Assembly: GCA_018260615.1 (NCBI GenBank)
Contig: JAGWDQ010000142.1
Span: forward strand, 1-18,590
Direction of reading: 5' to 3'
DNA: 18,590 nucleotides
Origin: Candidatus Altarchaeum sp.
Lineage (GTDB): Archaea; Altiarchaeota; Altiarchaeia; Altiarchaeales; Altiarchaeaceae
Below the pieces are notes generated by a model, which did no database searches, was not told the DNA's origin, and worked only from the letters and a program-made list of their open reading frames with translations. Below, one piece after another: positions 851-15,325 of the stretch (positions are counted from its first letter, which is position 1; the number at the start of each line of letters is the position of its first letter). A program made the position numbers and the translations under genes.

Positions 851-1500
851 AGACAAAACCAAAAGTTTGGGTGCCGGATAGTAATATTATTGTGTATTGG
901 ATTATGGGAAGGCACATTCTTCGTTGGCTTATAGTTGATTATTATAAATTTTCGGAGGAGTTAGTTAGTACATACTTGAAGAGATATGAGGACTCTATAA
1001 ATTTTGTTGATGAGATACTAAAGCAGGAAAAGGATTCTAATAAATTTTATGTGGTTGATTTGACTCTTAATGAAGTATTTTCCGGAATTAAGGACGAGAT
1101 AAAATCCGTAATGCTGTTTGAAAAAGGATATCCTCTTTCCCGCTGGTCAGACAGGAGGTTAATAGGAGAATTAAAACTAGATGAAGAGTTCATAATCAAG
1201 ATACGTGATTTTATTGCTCACGCTTTTCACGAATTGATGAAAAAAATTGAGATTCTGCCTGTTCCTTACGAAGATGAAGGATACTTTGATGTTTATGCTT
1301 CATTAATTCTAAAAAATATAGCGATGCAAACCCAGGACGCTATTCTACTGACAACTGCAATATTGGAAAGAGCAGATTATTTTGTTACGAAAGATGAGTA
1401 CTCTGTTGGAAGATATAAGGGAGTGATTAAAGATAAATATGATTTGGAAATTATATGTCCGGAACATGGATTAAATGTTTTAAAGAGGAAAGTAAAATGA
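838..1500 (+). CDS. PIN-domain (VapC-like) ribonuclease, 220 aa, with internal insertion
   Basis: PIN acidic motifs VPDSNII, LTLNEV, QTQDAILL and FVTKD. The start may be 838 or 844. Confidence 0.8.
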   Translation: MDMVKTKPKVWVPDSNIIVYWIMGRHILRWLIVDYYKFSEELVSTYLKRYEDSINFVDEILKQEKDSNKFYVVDLTLNEVFSGIKDEIKSVMLFEKGYPLSRWSDRRLIGELKLDEEFIIKIRDFIAHAFHELMKKIEILPVPYEDEGYFDVYASLILKNIAMQTQDAILLTTAILERADYFVTKDEYSVGRYKGVIKDKYDLEIICPEHGLNVLKRKVK

Positions 1501-2504
1501 AAACCATAAATTTAATCATCATCGGATTTGGAAACATCGGAAAGGGATTTTCAGATGTCCTGCTCAGAAAGGAGAAATTTCTTGCCGAACTGGGATATAA
1601 ATTTAATGTCAGGGCAATCTCTGAATGGAACGGCTCAATAATTGTTCATAGCGGAGAAGGAATAAATTTAAATGAAGTCCTTGAACTTGCCAAAAACAAA
1701 AAATTTAACGAACACAAAAATTTTTCTAAAAAGACGGCAAAAGATGTGCTTGAAGAGGTTGATGCGGATATTGCCTTAGAACTAACACCCGGAAATATTC
1801 AGACCGGAGAACCCGGATTAAGCAATATCATTAATGCTTTAAACAACGATAAGCATGTTGTAACCTCAAATAAGTCACCGATTGCTTTAAAATTTAACGA
1901 AATAACAGAGTTAGCAAAAAAACATAACAAAAAAATTTTATACGAAGCAACAGTTGCGGGAGCAATTCCTTTATTTAACCTTTACAGAGAAACATTGCAG
2001 ATAAATACAATCAACAACATTTACGGAATCTTCAACGGAACAACAAATTACATATTGACAAAGATGACCGACGAGGGAACTGATTTTAACACTGCATTAA
2101 AGGAGGCACAGGAACTGGGATATGCAGAAAGAGATGCGAGTTATGACCTTAACGGTTACGATACAGCGGTTAAGGTAGTTATTGCAGCAAATGCACTTAT
2201 GAAAAGAAAAATAAATTTCGGGGATGTCCAAATTTCAGGCATAACAGGAATTACTGAAGAGGCGATAAAATTAGCGAAGGAGCATAACTATGTTATAAAA
2301 TTGATTGGCGATTGTAATAAATCAGAGGTCTCTTTGCGGTTAATCAGGAAAGACAGTCCGTTGAACATAGGAGGAAATTTAAATGCGGTAATGATAGACA
2401 CAGACATAGCAAAAGATATAACTATAATAGGAAGAGGGGCGGGAGCAATTGAAACATCTTCGTCAATATTTTCCGATGTTTTAAAGATTGCGGAAGAAAT
2501 TTAA
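1497..2504 (+). CDS. hom: Homoserine dehydrogenase (335 aa, no ACT domain)
   Basis: Motifs IIGFGNIG (Rossmann fold), HVVTSNKSP, YEATVAGAIP, GIFNGTTNYIL, AQELGYAERD and GRGAGAIETSS. The likely start is ATG 1497, in an ATGA overlap with the PIN stop, rather than 1455. Confidence 0.95.
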   Translation: MKTINLIIIGFGNIGKGFSDVLLRKEKFLAELGYKFNVRAISEWNGSIIVHSGEGINLNEVLELAKNKKFNEHKNFSKKTAKDVLEEVDADIALELTPGNIQTGEPGLSNIINALNNDKHVVTSNKSPIALKFNEITELAKKHNKKILYEATVAGAIPLFNLYRETLQINTINNIYGIFNGTTNYILTKMTDEGTDFNTALKEAQELGYAERDASYDLNGYDTAVKVVIAANALMKRKINFGDVQISGITGITEEAIKLAKEHNYVIKLIGDCNKSEVSLRLIRKDSPLNIGGNLNAVMIDTDIAKDITIIGRGAGAIETSSSIFSDVLKIAEEI

Positions 2505-2683
2505 AAAAATTGCTAAAATTTTGCCACTCATAAATTTACCTTTAAGAAATAATTTGAAAAGAAGGCAGGCATTCAAAACGCAAACATTATTTTATAAGAT
2601 ATTTAGCATTAACTTAACAATTAATAAATAGTAATAAATTTTTCAAAATGCAAAATTTGAGTTTTGTATTTATTATTTGCACC

Positions 2684-3000
2684 AAGGAATCTCATGCAGT
2701 GCCGGTGGATATTAATCGTGCATTCCGTCCATCGTTAATAAAAAGCCTGCCTAAGGCACCTCTAAAACTTAGAGATGAGGATGTACCGTGATGTCAAGTG
2801 ATAAAAAAGATAAATTTATAAGATTTGCCAAAAAGATGAATACACTAACCAGTTTGGAAGTTGAAGCTTGGATATGCTGTCAAAAGAGCATGTACGCAAC
2901 AACTGCGGATATCATGTCAAATTGGAGTTATATATGTAATGCAGATATAATGTCAAATCGGGAGGATATACGCAACAACTGCGGATATAACATGTTATCC
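2684..3000 (+). other. Platform A: conserved leader, tandem repeats and attI-like site ending GTTATCC (2994-3000)
   Basis: Homologous to 3941-4202 (identical 20-mer TCCATCGTTAATAAAAAGCC and identical hairpin CTCTAA-aac-TTAGAG). Perfect 20-bp direct repeat TACGCAACAACTGCGGATAT at 2893-2912 and 2969-2988. It ends CGGATATA-acat-GTTAT immediately before cassette 1. Confidence 0.6.
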
Positions 3001-3028
3001 ACCATAGCCAGTATATGGAGGAAAAAAT

Positions 3029-3508
3029 ATGGGCCGAAAACATACATTTATGGATAAAGAATTTGGACGCATGGATTATGACCCTGACGATCATGGGAGT
3101 TTTGAACAAGGAATGGTATTTGTCGCTATGCCTTTTCATGGTGACGAAATGAGAGAAGTTTACTCTGCAATTAAGGATGAATGCTCAAAATTAGGGCTCA
3201 GAACAAAAAGGGTGGACGAAAATGTGGGGGCAGGTTTTATCATAAGAGAGATTACTAATCTCATTGAACGAGCCGAGTTTATCATATTTGACCTCACTCA
3301 TGAACGCCCAAATGTGTACTATGAACTTGGATTTGCTCATGGAGTGGGGAATGAGCCATTAGATATTTTATTGGTAGCAAAAGAGGGGACTACAATTCAC
3401 TTCGATATTGCCCCTATGAGAATACAGTTTTATAAGACAACAGAACATCTCCGTTCCATAGTTGCATCAAGCCTTAAAGAGATGATTCGAAAGACAAGGG
3501 GAGAGTGA
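3029..3508 (+). CDS. Nucleoside 2-deoxyribosyltransferase-like / TIR-like domain protein (cassette 1, 2995-3599)
   Basis: Motifs VFVAMPF, RVDE, AEFIIFDLT and RPNVYYELGFAHG. GGAGG SD at 3017-3021. The stop lies 2 nt before the attC flank. Confidence 0.75.
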   Translation: MGRKHTFMDKEFGRMDYDPDDHGSFEQGMVFVAMPFHGDEMREVYSAIKDECSKLGLRTKRVDENVGAGFIIREITNLIERAEFIIFDLTHERPNVYYELGFAHGVGNEPLDILLVAKEGTTIHFDIAPMRIQFYKTTEHLRSIVASSLKEMIRKTRGE

Positions 3509-3519
3509 ATGGCTACGGC

Positions 3520-3605
3520 GTATAACAAAGTGTATCCGCTACGCTTCGCTTGCCTTTCAGGAAATTTTGCTACGCAAAACTTCAGATACACTTGTTCCGT
3601 TATCC
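3520..3605 (+). other. attC-type recombination site 1 (86 bp)
   Basis: GTATAAC-A-AAGTGTATCCG ... CAGATACACTT-GTTCC-GTTATCC, with an internal TTTTGC/GCAAAA stem. The left flank 3511-3526 matches the reverse complement of 2994-3009 at 13/16. Confidence 0.8.
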
Positions 3606-3694
3606 AAAATTCCAAACTTGATCAAAACGCAAAATTTCAGTCCTTAATATATTTTGGAAATTCAACAATAGGAAGTTCCATATTATCTTTTTAT

Positions 3695-3795
3695 GTAACT
3701 ACTCACGGGGTAGGAAATTTACCTGTGAAAATTTCAAAAAAAATACAAAAAATCAAAAATTTACCAATAATTTTTTAGGATGGGTGAGTAGTTAC
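3695..3795. mobile_element. MITE copy 2 (101 bp, TIR GTAACTACTCAC), inverted relative to copy 1
   Basis: GTAACTACTCAC at 3695-3706 and GTGAGTAGTTAC at 3784-3795. The internal sequence is homologous to 450-596. Confidence 0.8.
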
Positions 3796-3940
3796 CTTTT
3801 TATTTAATATTTAATGTTATCTTACCCAATTAATAAAAAGAAATAAAATTTTCAAAACGCAAAACTTCAGTCATATTTATTTACAAAGTTTGGAAATTTT
3901 TATTCATATTTATATTTTGTGAAAATGAACTCACAGTCCG

Positions 3941-4202
3941 AAGGAATCAAATGCGGGACCGGTGGAAAATACTCGTGCATCCCTTCCATCGTTAATAAAA
4001 AGCCCACTCAGGCATCTCTAAAACTTAGAGGAGAGAATGTACTGCGATGTCAAACGTTAAAAATAAAATTATAAAATTCATCCAAAATGAGTATATACGC
4101 AACAACTACGGATTTCATGCCAAATTGGAGAGATATACGCAATGCAGATATCATGCCAAATCGGAAGGATATACGCAGTACTGCGTATATAACTTGTTAT
4201 AT
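3941..4202 (+). other. Platform B: second copy of the leader, tandem repeats and attI-like site ending GTTATAT (4196-4202)
   Basis: Homologous to 2684-3000. Three TATACGCA-initiated units start at 4094, 4134 and 4170. Perfect 22-bp palindrome ATATACGCAGTACTGCGTATAT at 4169-4190. It ends CGTATATA-actt-GTTAT. Confidence 0.6.
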
Positions 4203-4263
4203 GAAATTCCGAACCCCTTGAAAAAAGGCAAAACATTTTAATAAAATAGGAGAATAATACATT

Positions 4264-4725
4264 ATGATGAAAAACAATCAAAAAATCTTGATTGGAATTG
4301 GAATATTAGCATTAATTGCATTATTGGCATCCCTGCTTCTCTTTGTGATGCCTGCGGGGACTGATCGGACACCCCAAGATACTAATGACATATATATACC
4401 TGTTCGGGGCGAAGGGGTGGGAAGCGTTGGAAATAATACAGGTGAGCAAAGATTTTCTTACTGGATTTCATTATGTAACGGAAAAAATGACGAGATATTT
4501 GTTAGTTGGATTGAACCAATTTATTCTAATGAATTGCTCAAAAAATCGCAAACAAAAAACCACAAGGTCATTGTAGAAAAAACCATACTTCCCAATAATT
4601 GCACTAAAATCAATGGGGAACTCATTTTTGATTCAAAAGGATTATCAAAAACCGAGATAAATAGTTGGGATCCTTACATTACAGGTTTCAGAATATCTTA
4701 CGAAAAAATAATACAACTTGATTAA
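4264..4725 (+). CDS. Hypothetical membrane-anchored/exported protein (cassette 3, 4197-4885)
   Basis: Basic N-terminus followed by the hydrophobic helix ILIGIGILALIALLASLLLFVM. AGGAGA SD at 4248-4253. The remainder is a soluble, beta-rich domain. Confidence 0.75.
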   Translation: MMKNNQKILIGIGILALIALLASLLLFVMPAGTDRTPQDTNDIYIPVRGEGVGSVGNNTGEQRFSYWISLCNGKNDEIFVSWIEPIYSNELLKKSQTKNHKVIVEKTILPNNCTKINGELIFDSKGLSKTEINSWDPYITGFRISYEKIIQLD

Positions 4726-4803
4726 CAATACATTCAAGATAATTTAGACGGGGTTCGGAACTCTGAGGTCGCTCCTTGCGTCGCTCCCTTACTCTAACGA
4801 GTC

Positions 4804-4891
4804 ATATAACACGGGCTATACGGCTTCACTTCGTTACGCCCAAATTTGCTCCCTATGGTCGCAAACTTCGTATAGCCCGATTCCGTTATCG
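4804..4891 (+). other. attC-type recombination site 2 (88 bp)
   Basis: ATATAAC-A-CGGGCTATACG ... CGTATAGCCCG-ATTCC-GTTATCG. Flank GGGGTTCGGAA (4750-4760) plus TCATATAAC (4802-4810) complements the cassette start GTTATATGAAATTCCGAACCCC (4196-4217). Confidence 0.85.
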
Positions 4892-5052
4892 GAAATTTTT
4901 GAGGGCACTTGAAACGATGGACAATCTCTTGTTTGAGATATTTGAGAGGACAACATTTAGAATTTAAATTTTTATTATGTTAATTCTAACTTTGGATCAT
5001 ACAATTTTTTAATAGGTATTTGATTATTATTTTAATTTAATTACTATATAAG

Positions 5053-6825
5053 ATGGAAGAAGAAAGAAAAGAAATGAAGACAGATAAATTGTCGCGGTTA
5101 CAATTTTCATCTCAGATTACAAATAATATTGAAAATTCATTTGCAATTACTACTATTATACAAGGTCGTATTACTAAAATAAAAGGTGCTAATGTAACTG
5201 TTAAGACTCATGCTGGAGAATCATATCTCAGTTTTAATGCTTCATCCGAAATTAAAAAACTTGTAAAAATTGATAATCAAGGCTTTCATTATGAGAAAAT
5301 ATCCCACTACGATTTAATCAATCATATCTGCATATTTAAAATTGTTATCTATAATTCACCAGCTGATATAAAACCACGCCATCATACAATTTTAAGATTA
5401 GTTAGCTTTGGAATCAATAACGAACTTGTTAAAAATCCATATTTTCATTGTGTCTCTGCTGATTGGCTTGCATCTTTTTGGTTGCCTACTATGGACATAG
5501 AATTTGGAGGTGTTTATGGGAATATTTTAAATGGCGGTGTACAGATTATGGGACCAGATAGAGATGACAAATGGTCATATCTTACATCAAGATCCCTTGC
5601 AGGTTTTTCTTTTGGTTTTCAACTTACTGGAAAATCAGAATATTTAAATGCTGCAATTCATACTCTGGAGTTTTTGAAAAAATCAAAGGATGAAATAAAA
5701 GGTAATATAATATTTCGTTCTCGTCAGCTGCGCAACGGAAATCACCATCAGCTTGCAAGTTCTTTATATAATATTTTTGTTCATGAGTATTGTTTAACCG
5801 GCTTATTAAGATACTATGCAGCAACAAGTGACAATGAGACATATAATTTTATAATAAAAGCATTAGAATCCTTAATGTTATTTTATGATTCTAAATATGG
5901 TGGTTTTTATGATGCAATAGATAGAAACACACTATTACCGATACCTAAAGTCACTGATACTAAATCATTTACATCATCAGCTGATGTATTAGCTGCAACT
6001 GTTATATTCGCAAAAGAATTGAATATTCATACTAATAAATTTAATCCAACTTCTGTTGCTATTGAAATTTGTAAGTTGATTGTTGATCATCATTTAATTG
6101 AAGATAATCCCTTTATTATTGAATCTTTTAATTCTGATTGGACTTTAAATACTTCGCCCTGGCGAAATGAATATGCAACCGCAGATTTGGCAGGCAGTTG
6201 TGGAGCCACAGCGAAAGTTGCCAGAGTTTTAGCAGTATGCTTACCATTTTTACCAAGGGAATTACAAAATAAGACTAAACAAGCAATAAAGAATATTCTT
6301 GATAACCTTATAATTGTTGGGGCATGGGATCCTTTGAGGGGCGGCGTACATGATTTTATGATAAGATATTGGAAAAGAAATCAATTAGGCGAATTTGTTT
6401 TTCATAGTGATTATGTTTGGTGGTCTCAAGAACAATTATGTGTTACGGCATATTTAGGATACTTGCTTTTTAACGATAATCACTATCTTGACATTGCAAG
6501 ATCAATAGTTAATTTCTGGTTGGGTTGTTTTATTTCTATACATGGGGGTGTTCATGACACGATTGATCATGTTGGAAATCCAGTAAGTGCCCAGATGGGG
6601 TGTTGGTTAAAGAATTCTTATCATGAACTCGAATTTGCATATTATATTGCTATTTTTGAAGCAATCATAAATAAAACATCTATAACCCTCTATTTTGCAC
6701 CTTCATATACTGGAAATTATTTTGAATCTTTACCCGATATTGGCATTATAAAATGGGATATTGTTGAGAACATAACTCTACCAAATGGAACAAAATCAGT
6801 TACTTTTAAACCAATTAAACTATAA
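5053..6825 (+). CDS. Long-form AGE-family epimerase/isomerase homolog (N-terminal beta domain plus (alpha/alpha)6 barrel), divergent
   Basis: Motifs TSRSLAGFSFGFQLTGKSEYL, YGGFYDAID, WDPLRGGVHD, VWWSQEQ and SYHELE. The start may be the second Met (MKTDK). Confidence 0.7.
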   Translation: MEEERKEMKTDKLSRLQFSSQITNNIENSFAITTIIQGRITKIKGANVTVKTHAGESYLSFNASSEIKKLVKIDNQGFHYEKISHYDLINHICIFKIVIYNSPADIKPRHHTILRLVSFGINNELVKNPYFHCVSADWLASFWLPTMDIEFGGVYGNILNGGVQIMGPDRDDKWSYLTSRSLAGFSFGFQLTGKSEYLNAAIHTLEFLKKSKDEIKGNIIFRSRQLRNGNHHQLASSLYNIFVHEYCLTGLLRYYAATSDNETYNFIIKALESLMLFYDSKYGGFYDAIDRNTLLPIPKVTDTKSFTSSADVLAATVIFAKELNIHTNKFNPTSVAIEICKLIVDHHLIEDNPFIIESFNSDWTLNTSPWRNEYATADLAGSCGATAKVARVLAVCLPFLPRELQNKTKQAIKNILDNLIIVGAWDPLRGGVHDFMIRYWKRNQLGEFVFHSDYVWWSQEQLCVTAYLGYLLFNDNHYLDIARSIVNFWLGCFISIHGGVHDTIDHVGNPVSAQMGCWLKNSYHELEFAYYIAIFEAIINKTSITLYFAPSYTGNYFESLPDIGIIKWDIVENITLPNGTKSVTFKPIKL

Positions 6826-6841
6826 AATAATTTAAGACAAT

Positions 6842-8140
6842 ATGACAAAATCAATTCAAAAGTCCACATCATTTTTAGAACAAATATCTAAAATAGTACC
6901 TGGTGGTGCCAGTTCAAATGTCAGAACTCGCAATTCAATTGCTGTGTCACATGGTAAAGGTGCAGAATTATTTGATTTAGATGGGAATAGGTATATTGAT
7001 TATATGTTAGGTTTGGGCCCTGTTATATTAGGGCATGGTAATGATACTGTAAACCAGTTTGTTTCACAATCAATTAAAAAGGGAACATCGTTTGCATTTA
7101 CAACCGAGAGTGAATATCGTGTTTGTAAGAAAATAGTTGAAATCTCACCATCTGTTGAAATGGTTAGACTATGTAATTCCGGTTCTGAAGCTGCTATCAC
7201 TGCGTTTAGAATTGCACGAACCTTTACAGGGGGGAGTATTGCAATTAAAATTCAAGGGGATTATAATGGTAATTTTGATATTTTGGCACATGATGTGCCG
7301 GGAGTTGACGGCGATAATTTAGATAATGGTCCATTTCCTATTGGAACGGGTTTTTATAAAGATGTTGAAAAGTCGATAATTACAATTCCTTTTAATGATA
7401 TTGAAATATTAGAAAAAATATTATCAACTAAACAAAGCGAAATTGCAGCAGTTTTTATGGAACCAATTCTTGGCAATGTTGCAGCTATAATGCCAAATAC
7501 TGATTATTTGGCATCTGTAAGAGAACTGTGTACACACTATGGTGTTATTCTTGTATTTGATGAAGTAAAAACTGGTTTTAGAGTAAGTCTTCAAGGGGCA
7601 CAGGGACTTTTTGGTATAAATAGCGATTTAACTATGTATGGTAAGGCTATGGCTAATGGTTTTCCTATTGCAGCAATTGGTGGAAAAAAAGAATTAATGG
7701 AACTTGTAGGACCTGATAAGGTATTTCATTGTGGTACTTATTACGGTAATCTTGTCTCTACATCTGCTGCTGAAGTAGTTTTATCAATTCTATCTCAGGC
7801 AGATTATAGTTCACTATCTAAAAAAGGTGAAAGATTAGCTCAAGGGATTTGTGATATACTAAGGCAATTTGGTATTCCTTCTCAATGGAATGGGGTAGGA
7901 ACAATGTTTGGAATTACAATTGGAGAATCTAAACCAATTGATTATAAAACCTGGTGGAAAAGAACAGACCGAGAATTGTGGATTAGTATCTCAGAAATAA
8001 TGAGAAATTTAGGTATATTAAGTGATGATTTTGTTGGAGTTTTCTTTTTATCATTCGATCATACCGAAGAACACATTGATCAAACACTTAATATTTGTGA
8101 AAAAGCAATATCAATATATAAAAAGAATATGTGCAGATGA
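6842..8140 (+). CDS. Class III PLP-dependent aminotransferase, glutamate-1-semialdehyde aminomutase-like
   Basis: Motifs PGGASSNVR, YIDYMLGLGPVILGH, CNSGSEA, MEPILGN, FDEVKTGFR, YGKAMANG (PLP lysine) and GTYYGN. Not called hemL because of divergent motifs and context. Confidence 0.85.
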   Translation: MTKSIQKSTSFLEQISKIVPGGASSNVRTRNSIAVSHGKGAELFDLDGNRYIDYMLGLGPVILGHGNDTVNQFVSQSIKKGTSFAFTTESEYRVCKKIVEISPSVEMVRLCNSGSEAAITAFRIARTFTGGSIAIKIQGDYNGNFDILAHDVPGVDGDNLDNGPFPIGTGFYKDVEKSIITIPFNDIEILEKILSTKQSEIAAVFMEPILGNVAAIMPNTDYLASVRELCTHYGVILVFDEVKTGFRVSLQGAQGLFGINSDLTMYGKAMANGFPIAAIGGKKELMELVGPDKVFHCGTYYGNLVSTSAAEVVLSILSQADYSSLSKKGERLAQGICDILRQFGIPSQWNGVGTMFGITIGESKPIDYKTWWKRTDRELWISISEIMRNLGILSDDFVGVFFLSFDHTEEHIDQTLNICEKAISIYKKNMCR

Positions 8141-9000
8141 AAATTAACATAAAAGACATAGATGGAGATTTGAATAGTTTTATCACTTTATTGCGTAATA
8201 ATGATTTAAATAATATTGTTATTGTTGGTGGTGCGGTTCGTGATATAATTTTAAATCGACCATATAAAGATATTGATATAGCTATTCGATTAAATATTCC
8301 TTCACCATCATTAATTGATTTATGTTCGCCAATTAATAAATATGAAATATTACCGATAATCCAGAAAGAATTATTTAAATTAGATAATATACTAAACTGT
8401 AAAATTGATGATTTTATCGAAAAAGGGTCTGTTCCTTTTGGCAATACAACGATCGATATACTTGGTTTAGTGGTGGTTAAAGATAAAAGAGAACAATTAT
8501 TTCCCGATATTTTTATTGATAATAATAACCAAATCTTTGGAGCATATTCTGAACTTACAATTAATCGTTTAGCGCTTGATTTTGAGGGTAATATCTGGCC
8601 AACTGATTATATTGAACATATTTATAATAATATCGGGTATCTTACTAATGGAGTTTTAGGCATTGATTTTTATAGAATTTTACGAATTTTTAAAACATGT
8701 GAATTGCTGAATACCAAATTAGATTATAATGTAAGTATTCAAATAACTGATTATCTAAAAAAATTAAGAAATCCGAATCGGTTTCTTGATGAAATAAAAG
8801 ATAATAGGGTTTTACCAATGTTGAATTCACTTTTTCCAAATTTAAATTTTTCATTTGATATTTTCAATATAGATTTTATTATTAAAAAATTGGAAGAGAA
8901 ACTAAAAATTTATTCAATGAAAGAGAATCTGCCCTCTTCAGAGAGCAGTATCAAGCAGTACATAACCATGGATAAAAGCATTGCAGAAAGTCACCTATAA
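8137..9000 (+). CDS. Class II (CCA-adding/poly(A) polymerase head-like) nucleotidyltransferase, divergent
   Basis: Motifs VGGAVRD...KDIDI, TTIDI, ELTINRLALD and DFYRILR. The start is placed at ATG 8137, in an ATGA overlap with the aminotransferase stop. Confidence 0.75.
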   Translation: MKINIKDIDGDLNSFITLLRNNDLNNIVIVGGAVRDIILNRPYKDIDIAIRLNIPSPSLIDLCSPINKYEILPIIQKELFKLDNILNCKIDDFIEKGSVPFGNTTIDILGLVVVKDKREQLFPDIFIDNNNQIFGAYSELTINRLALDFEGNIWPTDYIEHIYNNIGYLTNGVLGIDFYRILRIFKTCELLNTKLDYNVSIQITDYLKKLRNPNRFLDEIKDNRVLPMLNSLFPNLNFSFDIFNIDFIIKKLEEKLKIYSMKENLPSSESSIKQYITMDKSIAESHL

Positions 9001-9029
9001 CCAAAAATATACAAAATCATACTAAAAAA

Positions 9030-9160
9030 CTGTCGGCTTTAGCCGACAGATATTTATATTTACGAAAAATTTGGTGGAGACCACAAAAATTAATTTATTG
9101 AAATTTATTACATTATTGGGGCAATTCATCTGCGGGCTGAAGCCCGCAGCGTTCTTGCCC
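9030..9160. mobile_element. Pair of IS200/IS605-type end hairpins (possible non-autonomous PATE)
   Basis: CTGTCGGCT-tt-AGCCGACAG at 9030-9049. GGGCAATTCAT-CTGCGGGC-tgaa-GCCCGCAG-cgttc-TTGCCC at 9119-9160, a nested-stem form typical of IS605 ends. No tnpA or tnpB between them. Confidence 0.55.
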
Positions 9161-9185
9161 ATTTGAAGTAAAATTAGAGGATATT

Positions 9186-10328
9186 ATGAAAGTAACAATG
9201 TTGGCAAAGGAATACCCACCCAACGTTTATGGTGGAGCAGGCGTCCATTTAAGACATTTGGCTCATGAGCTCTCAAGAATAATGGACGTCGAAGTCAAAT
9301 GTTTTGGTAACCAGAATATTAAGGAAAAACATCTCAAAGTCAAGGGGTATCAGCCATGTGATAGACTGAAGGAATGCAACGATCCACATTTTTATCTACC
9401 CTTTAGCACGATCTCTATAAACCTTTTGATGGCGCGGGACATGATCGATACAGATATTATCCACTCACATACATGGTACGCTTCATTTGCAGGTTTTCTA
9501 GCTAAGAGATTATATAAATTGCCCTTAGTAGTTACTTGTCACAGCATAGAGCCTTCACGTCCATGGAAGGAAGAACAACTTGGAAGAGCATATCAACTAA
9601 GCAGTTGGTTAGAAAAGACCGCTATTGAATCAGCGGATAGGGTGATCGCTGTTTCAAAAAATGTTAAGGAGGATATTCTGAAGCATTTCAACATTACAGA
9701 GGATCGTATAGTAGTGATATACAATGGAATAGACTTGAACAAATGGAAGGAAACTCTTACTGATTTCACAAAAAAGGAGTATGGTATTGATCACGACTAC
9801 ATCCTGTTTGTTGGTCGCACAACAAGACAGAAGGGGATGATTTATCTGATAGAAGCAGCTGACTATATTGAAAAAGACGTACAAATCGTTATCTGTACCA
9901 GCGCGCCGGATACTAAAGAGGTTGAGGAAGAGATGATGCAAAAAATGATACAGAAGAAAAATATTATATGGATAAACAAACTACTCAGAGAAGAACAATA
10001 TATTGAGCTATATAGTGGAGCGGTAGTATTTGTGTGTCCATCAATTTACGAACCATTTGGTATTGTAAATATAGAGGCTATGGCATGTAAAACTCCTATC
10101 GTGGCATCTGCTGTTGGTGGTATAAAGGAAGTCGTAATTCATGAAGAAACGGGCATGCTGGTGGAACCGGCAAAACCAAAGCAACTCGCCTACTACATCA
10201 ATCATCTGCTTAGGAATCGAGAATTGGCGAGGAAACTCGGAGAAAACGGCAGAAAGAGAGTTAAGGAACATTTTAGTTGGACATCTATCGCTCAGCAGAC
10301 AAAGAATCTATACGAGAGTATATTATAG
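9186..10328 (+). CDS. glgA: GT4 glycosyltransferase, GlgA/GlgM (Corynebacterium-type glycogen / maltose-1-phosphate synthase) family
   Basis: Motifs MKVTMLAKEYPPNVYGGAGVH, HSHTWYA, HSIEPSRPWKEEQLG, FVGRTTRQKG and CPSIYEPFGIVNIEAMAC. Confidence 0.85.
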   Translation: MKVTMLAKEYPPNVYGGAGVHLRHLAHELSRIMDVEVKCFGNQNIKEKHLKVKGYQPCDRLKECNDPHFYLPFSTISINLLMARDMIDTDIIHSHTWYASFAGFLAKRLYKLPLVVTCHSIEPSRPWKEEQLGRAYQLSSWLEKTAIESADRVIAVSKNVKEDILKHFNITEDRIVVIYNGIDLNKWKETLTDFTKKEYGIDHDYILFVGRTTRQKGMIYLIEAADYIEKDVQIVICTSAPDTKEVEEEMMQKMIQKKNIIWINKLLREEQYIELYSGAVVFVCPSIYEPFGIVNIEAMACKTPIVASAVGGIKEVVIHEETGMLVEPAKPKQLAYYINHLLRNRELARKLGENGRKRVKEHFSWTSIAQQTKNLYESIL

Positions 10329-10480
10329 AACATGGGACTGGACTTAAATCTGAACATTTAGGCAAACTATTGCAAACTTTTCTGGAAAAGAGTTCAGCCC
10401 AGAGGAAGTAAGAAAGATAAAAAGGTTAGTGCCCTCAAAAACTCTCGCTCCACTTCATTCCGCTCGGTGCTATCACACTC

Positions 10481-10564
10481 CGATAACAGAGTATATCCGC
10501 TTACGCCCTTTGGGAAATTGCTCCGCTGCGCTCCGCAACTTCGGATATACTCGTTCCGTTATCT
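10481..10564 (+). other. attC-type recombination site 3 (84 bp)
   Basis: CGATAAC-A-GAGTATATCCG ... CGGATATACTC-GTTCC-GTTATCT. Flank AGTGCCCTCAAAAA (10428-10441) plus TCCGATAAC (10479-10487) complements the cassette start at 4885-4909. Confidence 0.85.
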
Positions 10565-10579
10565 GCCATTGCAACAAAA

Positions 10580-10848
10580 TGAGCATGACTTACGCCCAAA
10601 AAACGACCTATTGAGCGGAAACCTAAACCTTCAAGATATAAAACTAATGCGTCACGTTTTAATTTAAAGGGTTTGCCAACTTGTTAAACTGTAAAATGAT
10701 ATTGACAGTCTTTACATAAATATCTTTGCTTTTGTTTAACAATTCCATCCTTGCGAATATTTTTACTTTTACAGTTTGGGCAATATTCCATCTTAAATAA
10801 TTTAATGCTGCACAAAAATTATGAAAACTATACTAAATTAACAATGCC
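10580..10848 (-). pseudogene. IS1-family transposase 5' remnant (zinc ribbon plus HTH) with left end; nonsense mutation and truncation
   Basis: Manual translation from ATG 10791 gives MEYCPNCKSKNIRKDGIVKQKQRYLCKDCQYHFTV*QVGKPFKLKRDALVLYLEGLGFRSIGRFLGVSH, with the stop at 10684-10686. The candidate end GGCATTG (10848-10842) fits the IS1 GGnnnTG consensus. Confidence 0.8.
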
Positions 10849-10859
10849 AATTATTCTCT

Positions 10860-11408
10860 TTACTCTCTTATTATCTTAAAATTTCCCAAATCAATAATTG
10901 TTGAGGGTGTTTTGTATTTACATTCCCCTGTTAAAATCAAATCAACAGCATTCTTTATTCTTTCATCAATTTCTTCAAAATTTTTTGCAGGCGGCTTACT
11001 GCTTATGTTTGCACTTGTTGTAATTATAGGATATTTCTCTGTCAAGACCCTAACTTTCTCATCATTAATGATTCGTATCCCCACAACATCTTTATTGGCA
11101 GTGATAATGTCAGAAATTTTATCTGTTTTCGGAACAATGAAAGTATATGGCTTGTCCGAGTGCTGCTTTATAAATTTTTCCATCTCATCATCTAATTTCA
11201 CAAATTCCTTTGCTTTGTTTAAATCATGAATTGCCACAGAAAGCGGTTTTATAAAATCCCTCTTCTTTATTTCAAAGATTCGTTTTATGCTTTCGGGAAA
11301 ATTTATCCTGCATCCGATTCCATAAACAGTATCTGTCGGATAACAGATAATTTTTCCTTCGTCCAGAAATTTTATTGCTAAATTTAAATCACAGGTTATT
11401 ATTGTCAT
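10860..11408 (-). CDS. tsaC: L-threonylcarbamoyladenylate synthase (TsaC/YrdC domain only, 182 aa)
   Basis: Motifs CYPTDTVYGIG, IFEIKKR...KPL, VGIRI, TTSANISSKP and PSTIID. Confidence 0.92.
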   Translation of the reverse strand: MTIITCDLNLAIKFLDEGKIICYPTDTVYGIGCRINFPESIKRIFEIKKRDFIKPLSVAIHDLNKAKEFVKLDDEMEKFIKQHSDKPYTFIVPKTDKISDIITANKDVVGIRIINDEKVRVLTEKYPIITTSANISSKPPAKNFEEIDERIKNAVDLILTGECKYKTPSTIIDLGNFKIIRE

Positions 11409-13342: not shown

Positions 13343-13890
13343 TCAAATTTAACAAATAGTGTCTGTTGAAATATGGACTTCTGAGAATGTGTTTCGGATT
13401 TCAGACATTCTAAAGATTTGGCAGAATGTGTCTGCCGAATTATAAATTTGCCAGACAGTGTCCGGCATTTTTTATCTTTAGATTTCCGAGACAGTGTCTC
13501 GGATTTTCCAGACATTGCATGGAATTTCTGATATTTGGCAGACAGTGTCTGCCAAATTGGAAAATTAAGATAAAAAGCCCACATATTCCTTAAATTTCTC
13601 TCGGAAAACCCTTTACTAAATTTAGCAGTCATATCTGCCGAAAGTTTTATAAGTAATTTTTCTCCATATTCAGCCCGCATTTTACCTTTCTGTTCAAACT
13701 CAACAACCTCTCTTCCGATTTCCCAATATTGCCTCACTTTGTTCGGAAATTTACTCACTTTGTTTGTAAATGCCAAAACCCGTGCCTTGTTAATCTCTCT
13801 TACTACTTTGCTTCTTGCTTCGGTTAAAATTTCTGCAATCCTGTCAATTAAACATCCATAATTTTTTGTAGTTATTTCTTTTTTTATCAT
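13339..13890 (-). pseudogene. Truncated YhcG/DUF1016 N-terminal domain gene (no PD-(D/E)XK domain) with repeat expansion
   Basis: YWEIGREVVEFEQKG..RAEYG..L..LS.D...F.KGFS.RNL..M..FY..FPIWQTLSAK is followed by about 7 QTLSAK-like units and then a stop overlapping the top6B start. Confidence 0.75.
13350..13557. repeat. Tandem palindromic coding repeats (about 7 units)
   Basis: Examples are ATTTGGCAGAC-agt-GTCTGCCAAAT (13533-13557) and TCCGAGAC-agt-GTCTCGGA (13485-13503). They encode QTLSAK, ETLSRK, RTLSGK, QTHSAK and similar units. Confidence 0.75.
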
Positions 13891-14022
13891 TTTAAAAAAG
13901 CAATTATATTACAATTACTATCAAAAATTTATATCACAAATTTAATTTATACTTCATTATTGAAAGACAAAACTTAACATAAAAATTAAAACTTCAGTAA
14001 TTTATATTTATTTATATGTAAG

Positions 14023-14174
14023 TAGGGCGTCCTAACACTTGAAAAAACCACCTGCTTACTGGTGCCGATTAACGAGTTTTTACCTTAAAAACCCACAAAA
14101 TATGCTGGTTTCAAAAAAAACCAATATCGTTTGATTGGGTTCGGGGTGGTTTTTTGGAGCATTAGGACGCCCTA
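14023..14174. mobile_element. MITE with 30-bp imperfect TIRs and TA termini (possible TA target duplication; IS630/IS5-like)
   Basis: TAGGGCGTCCTAA at 14023-14035 and TTAGGACGCCCTA at 14162-14174 are perfect. The repeat extends to 26/30 through AAAAAACCACC/GGTGGTTTTTT. Confidence 0.8.
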
Positions 14175-14290
14175 TTAGTAAAAGCAATAACAATATCAAA
14201 TGGCAACGAAATAGCTACAATGAAATTAATATCTATTGACAAAGATATGGTATAAACAAAATATCTCCGATTAATATATTTACACGTAAA

Positions 14291-14839
14291 ATGGCAACAA
14301 ATAAAAAAATAGATTTTAAACCTTCGCATGGTTTGTGGGATACAATAACAGCAGTATTTCTTGTGGTGGTTGCATTTAGCATGGCATATGTTTCTATAGT
14401 AAATAGTAACTTGTCTCTTTTTGTTTTTACTCTTATTTTCACCGCGTATCTGCTTTTTCAAATTTATCACACATATTACACCCTTACAGACAGTTTAATA
14501 ATTTTTAGGTTGGGCAACATAAAAATAGGTGTCCCTATAAACAATATTAAAAATTTAAAAATAATGAATGGAAACATAACAAAAACATTTAGCGAAGCGT
14601 GCAAAGATAATTATTGGTATACAATTCCCTTAGGTTGTTTTATGGTGATACCCGGATGCAGAACTATTTTTGTTGCAGTTCATTATAAAAATAAACCAAT
14701 ACTAATTGAATTGAAAACTCCGGTAAAATTTTTAGGTATAATGGACATCCATAAAATTGTAATCAATGTAGATGAACCAAAAGAATTTGTTAGTGAAGTT
14801 TTAGATTTGCAAAGTAACAAACAAATTAACAAAATTTAA
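14291..14839 (+). CDS. Hypothetical membrane protein (two N-terminal TM helices, possible bacterial PH-like domain)
   Basis: Two hydrophobic helices are followed by TYYTLTDSLIIFRLG...IPINNIK.L, a pattern typical of bPH-type domains. Confidence 0.7.
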   Translation: MATNKKIDFKPSHGLWDTITAVFLVVVAFSMAYVSIVNSNLSLFVFTLIFTAYLLFQIYHTYYTLTDSLIIFRLGNIKIGVPINNIKNLKIMNGNITKTFSEACKDNYWYTIPLGCFMVIPGCRTIFVAVHYKNKPILIELKTPVKFLGIMDIHKIVINVDEPKEFVSEVLDLQSNKQINKI

Positions 14840-14974
14840 TGTTTGCTGTAGAAATGCCAGATATTATCCAATAGCCCATTGCACAAATAAAATCGTTGGA
14901 TTTTACAAAATGATATCTATATCTTAGATATTCATATGCGTCAACTTAAGATTTTCAGGCGTTTGAAATTTCTG

Positions 14975-15325
14975 TCCGAATAATTGCTTACTATCCGAAT
15001 AATTGCTTACTATTTTCAAAAACGAAGTTTTTGAAAATCTCCGAACGATATCAAAAATGCTTCAAGCATTTTCAAATCATAGAGATTTGAAAATCTCCGA
15101 ACGAAGTGAGGTGATTTTTGAATATCCCAAAAACCTTGAAGGTTTTTACGATAGTGAGGTGATTGGCAGGACTTATGATTTTTGTTATTTACGAACGAAG
15201 TGAGTAAATATCCGAACGAAGTGAGGTTATTTTCAAACTTGTTTGAAAATATACTGAAAACTATAAGTTTTCAATCTTTAAAAATGCTTGTAGCATTTTT
15301 AAATGAGAGCGAAGCGAACTTATTT
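14975..15325. repeat. Large mosaic palindromic repeat cluster (REP/BIME-like)
   Basis: A perfect 19-bp tandem duplication (14975-15012) is followed by about 7 AT-rich hairpins, e.g. TTTTCAAAAAC-gaa-GTTTTTGAAAA and TTTAAAAATGCT-tgt-AGCATTTTTAAA. They are linked by CGAACGAAGTGAG motifs near 15098, 15192 and 15212. Confidence 0.8.

Follow-up and report, generated by a model that had tools for sequence, protein, structure and literature searches.

Genes and features of cassette B2

The DNA analysed (the window, 18,590 nt) is contig C142 of a metagenome-assembled genome of Candidatus Altarchaeum sp. (2.23 Mb, 33% G+C, 87% complete), and its main feature is a 5673-bp four-gene unit, here called cassette B2, which lies between two repeated attC-like sites. 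An archaeal gene set is present in the window (topoisomerase VI B, Sua5, homoserine dehydrogenase, DUF1464). The locus was recovered in three further assemblies at 99.99% identity and is therefore no assembly artefact; at this identity the four assemblies represent one population, and they confirm the assembly while being uninformative on mobility.

A sequence-only reading of the window had described B2 as a giant cassette spanning genes for an AGE-like epimerase, an aminotransferase, a nucleotidyltransferase and a GlgA/GlgM enzyme, and profile matches agree with these four assignments. The features of B2, all on the plus strand, are given below, where R1 is a covariance model of the sites and PDB matches are given with their E-values.

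4886..10558: cassette B2, a 5673-bp four-gene unit; it starts with the TTAT that follows the crossover G of 4885 and ends on the crossover G of 10558.
4886..4962: conserved cassette leader; its opening 24-25 nt make up the outer stem's right half, and the remainder is common to cassettes with other cargo.
5053..6825: AGE-superfamily (cellobiose/N-acetylglucosamine 2-epimerase-like) protein of 590 aa with an N-terminal extension of ~140 aa (PF07221, 24.8 bits against a cut-off of 23.4; PDB cellobiose 2-epimerase, 1e-8).
6842..8140: class III (HemL/GSA-aminomutase-like) pyridoxal phosphate-dependent aminotransferase (PF00202, 1.2e-56; PDB GSAM, 8e-87).
8131..9000: short nucleotidyltransferase with a PolyA_pol/CCA head domain, whose gene overlaps that of the aminotransferase (PF01743, 25.4 bits against a cut-off of 23).
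9001..9185: spacer where the composition breaks; it contains two perfect 8-bp hairpins (9030-9049 and 9130-9149) and has a fold z-score of -4.9.
9186..10328: glycosyltransferase of family 4 (GT4), GlgM / glgA_Coryne type, an alpha-maltose-1-phosphate or glycogen synthase (TIGR02149, 522.9 bits against a cut-off of 302.4; PDB 6tvp, mycobacterial GlgM, 4e-93).
10428..10570: composite attC-like site of B2, made up of the left half of the outer stem (10428-10441), a 37-nt bulge module (10442-10478), R'' (10479-10487), the L stems and R' with G|TTAT at 10558 (R1, 69.3 bits; DNA fold).

End pairing and recombination sites

The sequence at 4885-4909 is GTTATCGGAAATTTTTGAGGGCACT, and its reverse complement, which had been noticed in parts within 10428-10487, is found there exactly, split into AGTGCCCTCAAAAA (10428-10441, 14 nt) and TCCGATAAC (10479-10487, 9 nt) by a 37-nt insert. 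Each half is unique in the window, and the 14+9 pairing is without mismatch. End pairing with differing sequences was also found in cassettes on four other contigs (C36, C69, C70 and C81); since the end sequences vary between units and the geometry is kept, this speaks for structure-specific recombination sites rather than the ends of a transposon.

The covariance model R1 was built from 20 sites of this genome (15 pairs) and run with filters off. Exactly three sites were found in the window, at 3512-3611 (85.5 bits), 4796-4897 (76.0 bits) and 10473-10570 (69.3 bits), with G|TTAT crossovers at 3599, 4885 and 10558, respectively, and the next-best matches fall on two attI-like junctions, 4179-4208 with 14.4 bits and 2977-3006 with 8.7 bits. 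No internal site was found above noise in 4898-10472 (best match 10.7 bits, E=2), in agreement with the earlier observation that no other attC-like hairpin lies between the two ends; degenerate attC sites that would split the segment are likewise not detectable in this interval. As no R1 site lies within it, 4886-10558 is one site-to-site unit without a detectable internal site. A sequence of the form AACTTC..ATA..C...TTCCGTTAT is common to three repeats at 3578, 4864 and 10537, the last two of which (repeat D7) are spaced 5673 bp apart.

The site pattern has 22 matches in the genome with up to 3 mismatches, and none for a reversed-pattern control; the site family numbers 25 copies in this genome and is present in 25 of the 61 genomes of the class, and among named public genomes, Candidatus Altiarchaeales records are over-represented in the exact pattern matches. 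In 20 aligned copies, ATAAC is followed by 1 base, a 10-11-nt L'' arm, a variable loop with CCAAATT and AACTTC, the L' arm, 5 bases (mostly NTTCC) and GTTAT, with ATAAC...GTTAT invariant. The L stem is recovered by RNAalifold, with compensatory changes in 8 of its 10 pairs across the 20 sites, and single-strand DNA folds of the bottom strands are more stable than those of shuffled sequences (z-scores -2.6 to -5.3). An Rfam scan of the window gave no match. The composite site of B2 is ~140 nt long. Of the earlier description of B2 as bounded by attC-like sites, the single unit between two sites and the pairing of its ends hold; the sites differ from canonical attC, and IntI is absent.

Repeats of this kind could in principle be REP- or MITE-like (repetitive extragenic palindromic or miniature inverted-repeat transposable) elements, terminator hairpins or a transposon's inverted 25-nt ends, the gene block having come by another route. 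The ends do resemble 25-bp terminal inverted repeats, a fragment of the insertion sequence (IS) IS1 is adjacent and the genome is rich in MITE-like elements, but the end sequences differ from unit to unit on a constant structure, no transposase lies within the unit, no target duplication is present, the exchange point is always G|TTAT, attI-like platforms included, and cassette content varies behind a constant frame. This explanation is considered very improbable.

A reusable leader and site frame

The 23-nt start of B2 was found in eight metagenome contigs of 31-44% G+C. Units with this start that end in an R1 site are present at three of these loci (two units in L061, one each in L062 and L064), and the left arm of their sites has the form (A/G)(G/C/T)GCCCTCAAAAA, module, TC(C/A)GATAAC. 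Their sizes are 2146 and 1717 bp (L061), ~4700 bp (L062) and ~1600 bp (L064), and their cargo is unrelated, comprising a TIR protein, small membrane proteins, a CHAT-TPR protein with TPR partners and an unknown 394-aa protein. The leader (78 nt) is conserved to ~4962, after which the sequences diverge, and conservation is back at ~10418; the cargo thus fills ~4963-10417 inside a conserved frame, and a conserved frame around varying cargo favours a cassette frame having acquired the gene block. The sequence-only reading had proposed looking for the same end pair around only glgA or only the three-gene block; neither arrangement was found, and the ends occur around other cargo only.

The 25-mer TTATCGGAAATTTTTGAGGGCACTT (4886-4910) is identical in the eight contigs (L057-L064). 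It follows attC-like sites, in several contigs it comes directly behind an attI-like platform of tandem repeats (the repeats of L060, L063 and L064 being quite different), and in L059 it stands against a HEAT-repeat gene that is truncated. Such strong conservation suggests that this arm is bound by a protein.

Cargo genes and their origins

The first three genes of B2 form a rare, very AT-rich operon and are tightly spaced, with a 16-nt gap followed by a 10-nt overlap, and the GT4 gene follows after the 185-nt spacer. The aminotransferase scores under the HemL cut-offs (TIGR00713, 350.7 against 527.3 bits; NF000818, 354.8 against 398) and also under the GntE cut-off, and the nucleotidyltransferase was matched to PolyA_pol families in an Atlas structure search (template-modelling scores of 0.53-0.57). 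The nearest homologues of the GT4 protein are bacterial (65-68% identity) and lie in glgE-glgM-malQ operons; no match to the gene was found at E <=1e-40 in the 60 other genomes of the class, and no GlgE or any GH13 enzyme was detectable in this 87%-complete assembly. By these comparisons the fourth gene is an orphan bacterial-type GlgM/GlgA.

The spot counts from which a mosaic had been proposed (13/60 G+C at 8161-8220 and 26/60 at 9541-9600) are exact, and the mosaic is borne out by a bipartite G+C content at third codon positions (GC3), which is 0.17-0.20 for the first three genes and 0.386 for the GT4 gene. The individual values for the AGE-like, aminotransferase and nucleotidyltransferase genes (0.195, 0.173 and 0.193) fall in the bottom 0.4-1.6% of 989 long open reading frames (ORFs), that of the GT4 gene is at their 96.7th percentile, and the genome mean is 0.304. 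Because they lie at opposite GC3 extremes, the three-gene block and the GT4 gene both look foreign and of different origins.

Among 5.8 billion proteins, 11 homologues of the AGE-like protein were found. Their eight loci represent 7 distinct contexts (L043 and L044 are duplicates), all without GT4; a class III aminotransferase gene comes after or lies near the AGE-like gene in 6 of the 8 (L037-L042). The third gene of L037 encodes the same short nucleotidyltransferase (41% identity), a related nucleotidyltransferase (26% identity) is placed between the AGE-like gene and the aminotransferase gene in L038, and the third ORF of L040 is similar only in its N-terminal region (37% over 62 aa). Neighbours of the block elsewhere include IS5-type and Y1 transposases, a reverse-transcriptase fragment and a TreZ-like GH13 enzyme. 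GT4 adjoins the block in none of its other loci, and no R1-type site was found at the six block loci tested (L037-L040, L043, L044).

In L043/L044 (one context seen twice; 1102-4490) the AGE-like gene is followed by a 282-aa ORF, without an aminotransferase gene, and a Y1 (IS200/IS605) transposase gene lies beside the pair. In L038 (8001-14620; L086, L087) the module stands beside the TreZ-like GH13 enzyme, and in B2 it stands beside GlgM; these are two independent links of the module to alpha-glucan or malto-oligosaccharide metabolism. The four enzymes of B2 presumably act together on an alpha-glucan or disaccharide-derived amino sugar, and a rare three-gene module tied to alpha-glucan enzymes in two contexts provides a lead to the function of the module. 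Compared with the GlgE-GlgM alpha-glucan pathway, the fourth gene of B2 matches GlgM, but its GlgE/GH13 counterpart was not detected in this genome.

Two origins of B2 had been offered earlier, the mobilisation of a whole pathway as one cassette or the absorption of a gene block by a smaller cassette. The second is favoured by the bipartite composition, by the occurrence of the block elsewhere without GT4 and by the frame around smaller unrelated cargo.

The spacer at the compositional break

The two spacer hairpins have the form CTG-N5-loop-N5-CAG, and one of them is followed by ATATTTATAT (loci L012, L016). Copies of the hairpin were found in the relatives G036 (8 copies), G021 and G030 as a dispersed intergenic repeat, and no copy was found elsewhere in this genome. 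Because the hairpins occur within this genome only in B2 and are dispersed in relatives, there is a hint that the spacer may derive from another Altiarchaeia lineage.

Hairpins at the junction had been taken for IS605-type elements. This assignment was rejected, as the window contains no Y1 or TnpB ORF, and the spacer bears no similarity to the Y1_Tnp flanks of L043/L044 and matches intergenic repeats of relatives. The likeness to IS200/IS605 subterminal hairpins lies in short GC-rich hairpins at a junction; those of B2 differ in having perfect 8-bp stems and no TnpA or TnpB.

The sharp compositional break at the spacer also fits a fusion, in which a three-gene cassette and a glgM cassette of one site family merged by deletion of the attC-like site between them. 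In L061, two adjoining cassettes have a common start and left arm, and loss of the middle site there would keep the end-pairing rule. Neither a site nor the 78-nt leader, however, has left a remnant in the spacer, where R1 gives no match even at E <=10 and where hairpin repeats found in the intergenic DNA of relatives stand instead; moreover, the three-gene block was never seen elsewhere as a site-bounded cassette. Fusion is accordingly regarded as an unlikely origin, and acquisition of the block within one cassette frame is preferred.

Unit size and candidate recombinase

B2 is ~3 times the supposed maximum size of an integron cassette, a class of unit generally regarded as small and in most cases limited to one gene. 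The 4-kb clustering distance of IntegronFinder was set at double the length of the biggest cassettes known, ~2 kb (PMC4889954), and the same 4-kb rule was applied in a survey of archaeal integrons (PMC9668308). In canonical integrons excision falls for cassettes of at least 1.5 kb (PMC5371416), a Vibrio cassette extended to 4 kb by an IS gave no capture (bioRxiv 10.64898/2026.03.17.712381), and streamlining to fit the ~2-kb limit has been proposed for cassette-borne defence systems (bioRxiv 10.1101/2024.07.02.601686).

With filters off, three more units that lack an internal site (5695, 4010 and 3780 bp) were found in this genome, and one of 4045 bp in the congener G003. A 3175-bp candidate large unit on G003:C2 was rejected, being divided by a weaker site once filters were off. 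Spacings from the 61-genome survey were scored with stricter filters and are upper bounds, except for four that were re-tested with filters off. Units of 4-7 kb are common in this archaeal cassette system, and B2 is not exceptional in it. The earlier emphasis on giant size is therefore apt for canonical integrons (~2 kb) but not within this system, which has units of 4.0, 5.7, 6.75 and 7.05 kb. Two units of G060, likewise free of internal sites, are larger than B2, one of 6750 bp (G060:C98:3888-10638, L092), which contains a single 2177-aa ORF, and one of 7046 bp.

The sole PF00589 protein in the assembly is encoded at C79:92-1120, 92 nt from the contig end. It passes the archaeal XerA model (NF040815, 238 bits against a cut-off of 220) and fails the IntI model (TIGR02249, 207 against 265), and it lacks TIGR02249 positions 180-235, the region of the IntI-specific domain.

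The sites could be real and the array nonetheless sedentary and decayed, with a 5.7-kb unit that is no longer excisable and four genes that are in effect fixed. The locus is identical in four assemblies, no integrase adjoins the array, the IS1 fragment abuts the last site, and canonical integrons are size-sensitive, as described above. Set against this, the stems of the flanking sites are all intact and the 14+9 end pairing is mismatch-free, array content varies among congeners, and the recurrence of 4-7 kb units in three genomes argues that such sizes are tolerated. A fossil array is thus a possible account of the locus, though a less probable one than a functional cassette.

The array as an insertion and its neighbours

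B2 is the last unit of a larger array, whose other features and neighbouring genes are as follows.

1455-2504: hom, left neighbour of the array insertion.
2523..10858, plus strand: the whole cassette-array insertion between hom and sua5; at the empty site in G003:C74, position 2522 abuts 10859.
3941..4196, plus strand: attI-like platform B, a paralogue of 2684-2994, ending ATATAAC-TT-G|TTATATG (direct repeats D1, D9 and D13 at 82-86% identity; R1, 14.4 bits; R''-2nt-R' match at 4179-4208).
4197..4885, plus strand: cassette B1 (ORF 4264-4725), whose start TTATATGAAATTCCGAACCCC pairs with GGGGTTCGGAA (4750-4760) and TCATATAAC (4802-4810); R1, 76 bits at 4796-4897.
10564..10791, minus strand: IS1 InsA-like N-terminal fragment (zinc ribbon and helix-turn-helix) with an internal TAA, which stops at the crossover point of the last site (translation; PF03811, 21.6 bits, below cut-off).
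10860-11408, minus strand: sua5, right neighbour of the array insertion.

In G003, hom (91% protein identity) and sua5 (84%) are convergent and 13 bp apart; because the two genes directly adjoin there, 2523-10858 is an insertion relative to this congener. The flanks in G001 and G002 were uninformative, owing to a rearrangement and a contig end. The possibility, raised by the sequence-only reading, that these genes are conserved at the locus in relatives lacking the flanking sites does not hold, as G003 is without the genes and without the sites.

The end pairing of B1 is 11+9 nt, with a 41-nt insert between GGGGTTCGGAA and TCATATAAC. The paralogous platforms 2684-2994 and 3941-4196 (82-86% identity) both end in ATAAC-2nt-G|TTAT, and behind each lies a cassette with end pairing; a single insertion thus holds two attI-like platforms. 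At the right end, the array may have recombined into a secondary GTTAT that lay within an IS; alternatively, a lost unit may have begun with the IS fragment.

Further repeats and insertions were noted in the window. Inverted copies of a MITE-like element with the ends GTAACTACTCAC...GTGAGTAGTTAC flank hom (window 3691-3795 and 450-600). The region ~435-1492 (220-aa ORF at 838-1500) has no counterpart in G003, where position 434 aligns ~46 bp from 1493, and is a second insertion beside hom. Short hairpin repeats of the TTTGGCAGACAGTGTCTGCCAAA type are clustered in and beside a DUF1016 gene (13347-13566, 13725-13778 and 15180-15233), and a 54-nt inverted pair spans 13725-15233.

Proposed recombination of B2

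Taken together, B2 is likely to be a gene cassette, or single recombination unit, within an array that lacks an integrase. The array belongs to an integron-like but non-canonical system, widespread in Altiarchaeia. When a cassette is cut at G|TT, the distal portion of its site comes to lie at its 5' end. In the circular form of B2, the first 24 nt would pair with the left arm of its own site, giving a 14-bp outer stem and a 9-bp R stem with the 37-nt module interrupting them. For excision and insertion, a tyrosine recombinase would exchange strands at G|TTAT between folded sites, and the XerA-class protein is the only candidate for this enzyme in the assembly. The predicted excision junction is the left part of the 4796-4885 site joined to TTATCTGCCATTGC, and the predicted circle junction is ...CGTTCCG joined to TTATCGGAAATTTTT. 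The cargo is chimeric and was probably assembled within a pre-existing, reusable leader and site frame. B2 presumably still moves as one piece.

Several observations weigh against such a cassette. No circle, excision junction or second genomic location of B2 was found, and it is in the same place in all four assemblies. The outer stem is common to several cassettes, so the end pairing alone does not exclude a fusion of two family members. The sites are without the extrahelical bases of canonical attC, and canonical excision efficiency is size-sensitive (PMC5371416; bioRxiv 10.64898/2026.03.17.712381). No IntI was found in the 87%-complete genome, in which the sole tyrosine recombinase is XerA-type, and this XerA-class protein may simply be the chromosomal dif recombinase.

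A broader proposal, put forward tentatively, is that Altiarchaeia might possess a Xer-type integron-like system without a practical size ceiling, which would move 4-7 kb operons as single cassettes aided by the length of the composite sites and their extended outer stems; new cassettes would arise from cargo loaded into the reusable frame. If true, the absence of a size ceiling together with frame loading would give a direct handle on cassette origin and on cross-domain pathway transfer (a bacterial glgM and a rare three-gene amino-sugar module).

Comparison with known systems

Like canonical attC, the sites of this system have an inverse core AAC and a core GTT joined by a second L''/L' stem. 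The extrahelical L-box bases and the roughly symmetric unpaired central spacer of canonical attC are absent; here the L stems are perfect, and the loop between the R and L stems is asymmetric, with 1 against 5 nt. The canonical rule that the first bases of a cassette are complementary to the R'' side of its own site is followed by B1, B2 and the units of L061, L062 and L064. Under the 4-kb rule for clusters of attC sites lacking integron-integrases (CALINs), applied here to sites called by R1 and not by the canonical model, a distance of 1.3 kb separates the sites at 3599 and 4885, which would cluster, and the third, 5.67 kb further on, would lie beyond the cluster.

The Vibrio cholerae repeat (VCR) cassettes of Vibrio have near-identical attC sites around unrelated cargo and are thus alike in the reuse of one conserved frame. 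In the present system, unlike theirs, a 78-nt 5' leader belongs to the conserved part, and cargo sizes run from 1.6 to >5.6 kb, operons included. The same leader and site around unrelated cargo is concrete material on how cassettes are made.

With sedentary chromosomal integrons and CALINs (PMC4889954; PMC9668308) the array has in common co-oriented genes each followed by an imperfect-palindrome site, AAC...GTT cores, covarying inner stems, exchange at G|TT, a cassette start complementary to its own site, within-genome homogeneity of the sites and a chromosomal insertion without an adjacent integrase. It differs from them in the lack of IntI, in composite sites with a long interrupted outer stem and in a 5.7-kb four-gene unit. 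New here are the operon-size cassettes, the reuse of a leader and site frame, and a rare three-gene module joined to an orphan bacterial glgM. Surveys run at standard settings would split or miss such arrays, and pathway-scale transfer in archaea would be underestimated as a result.

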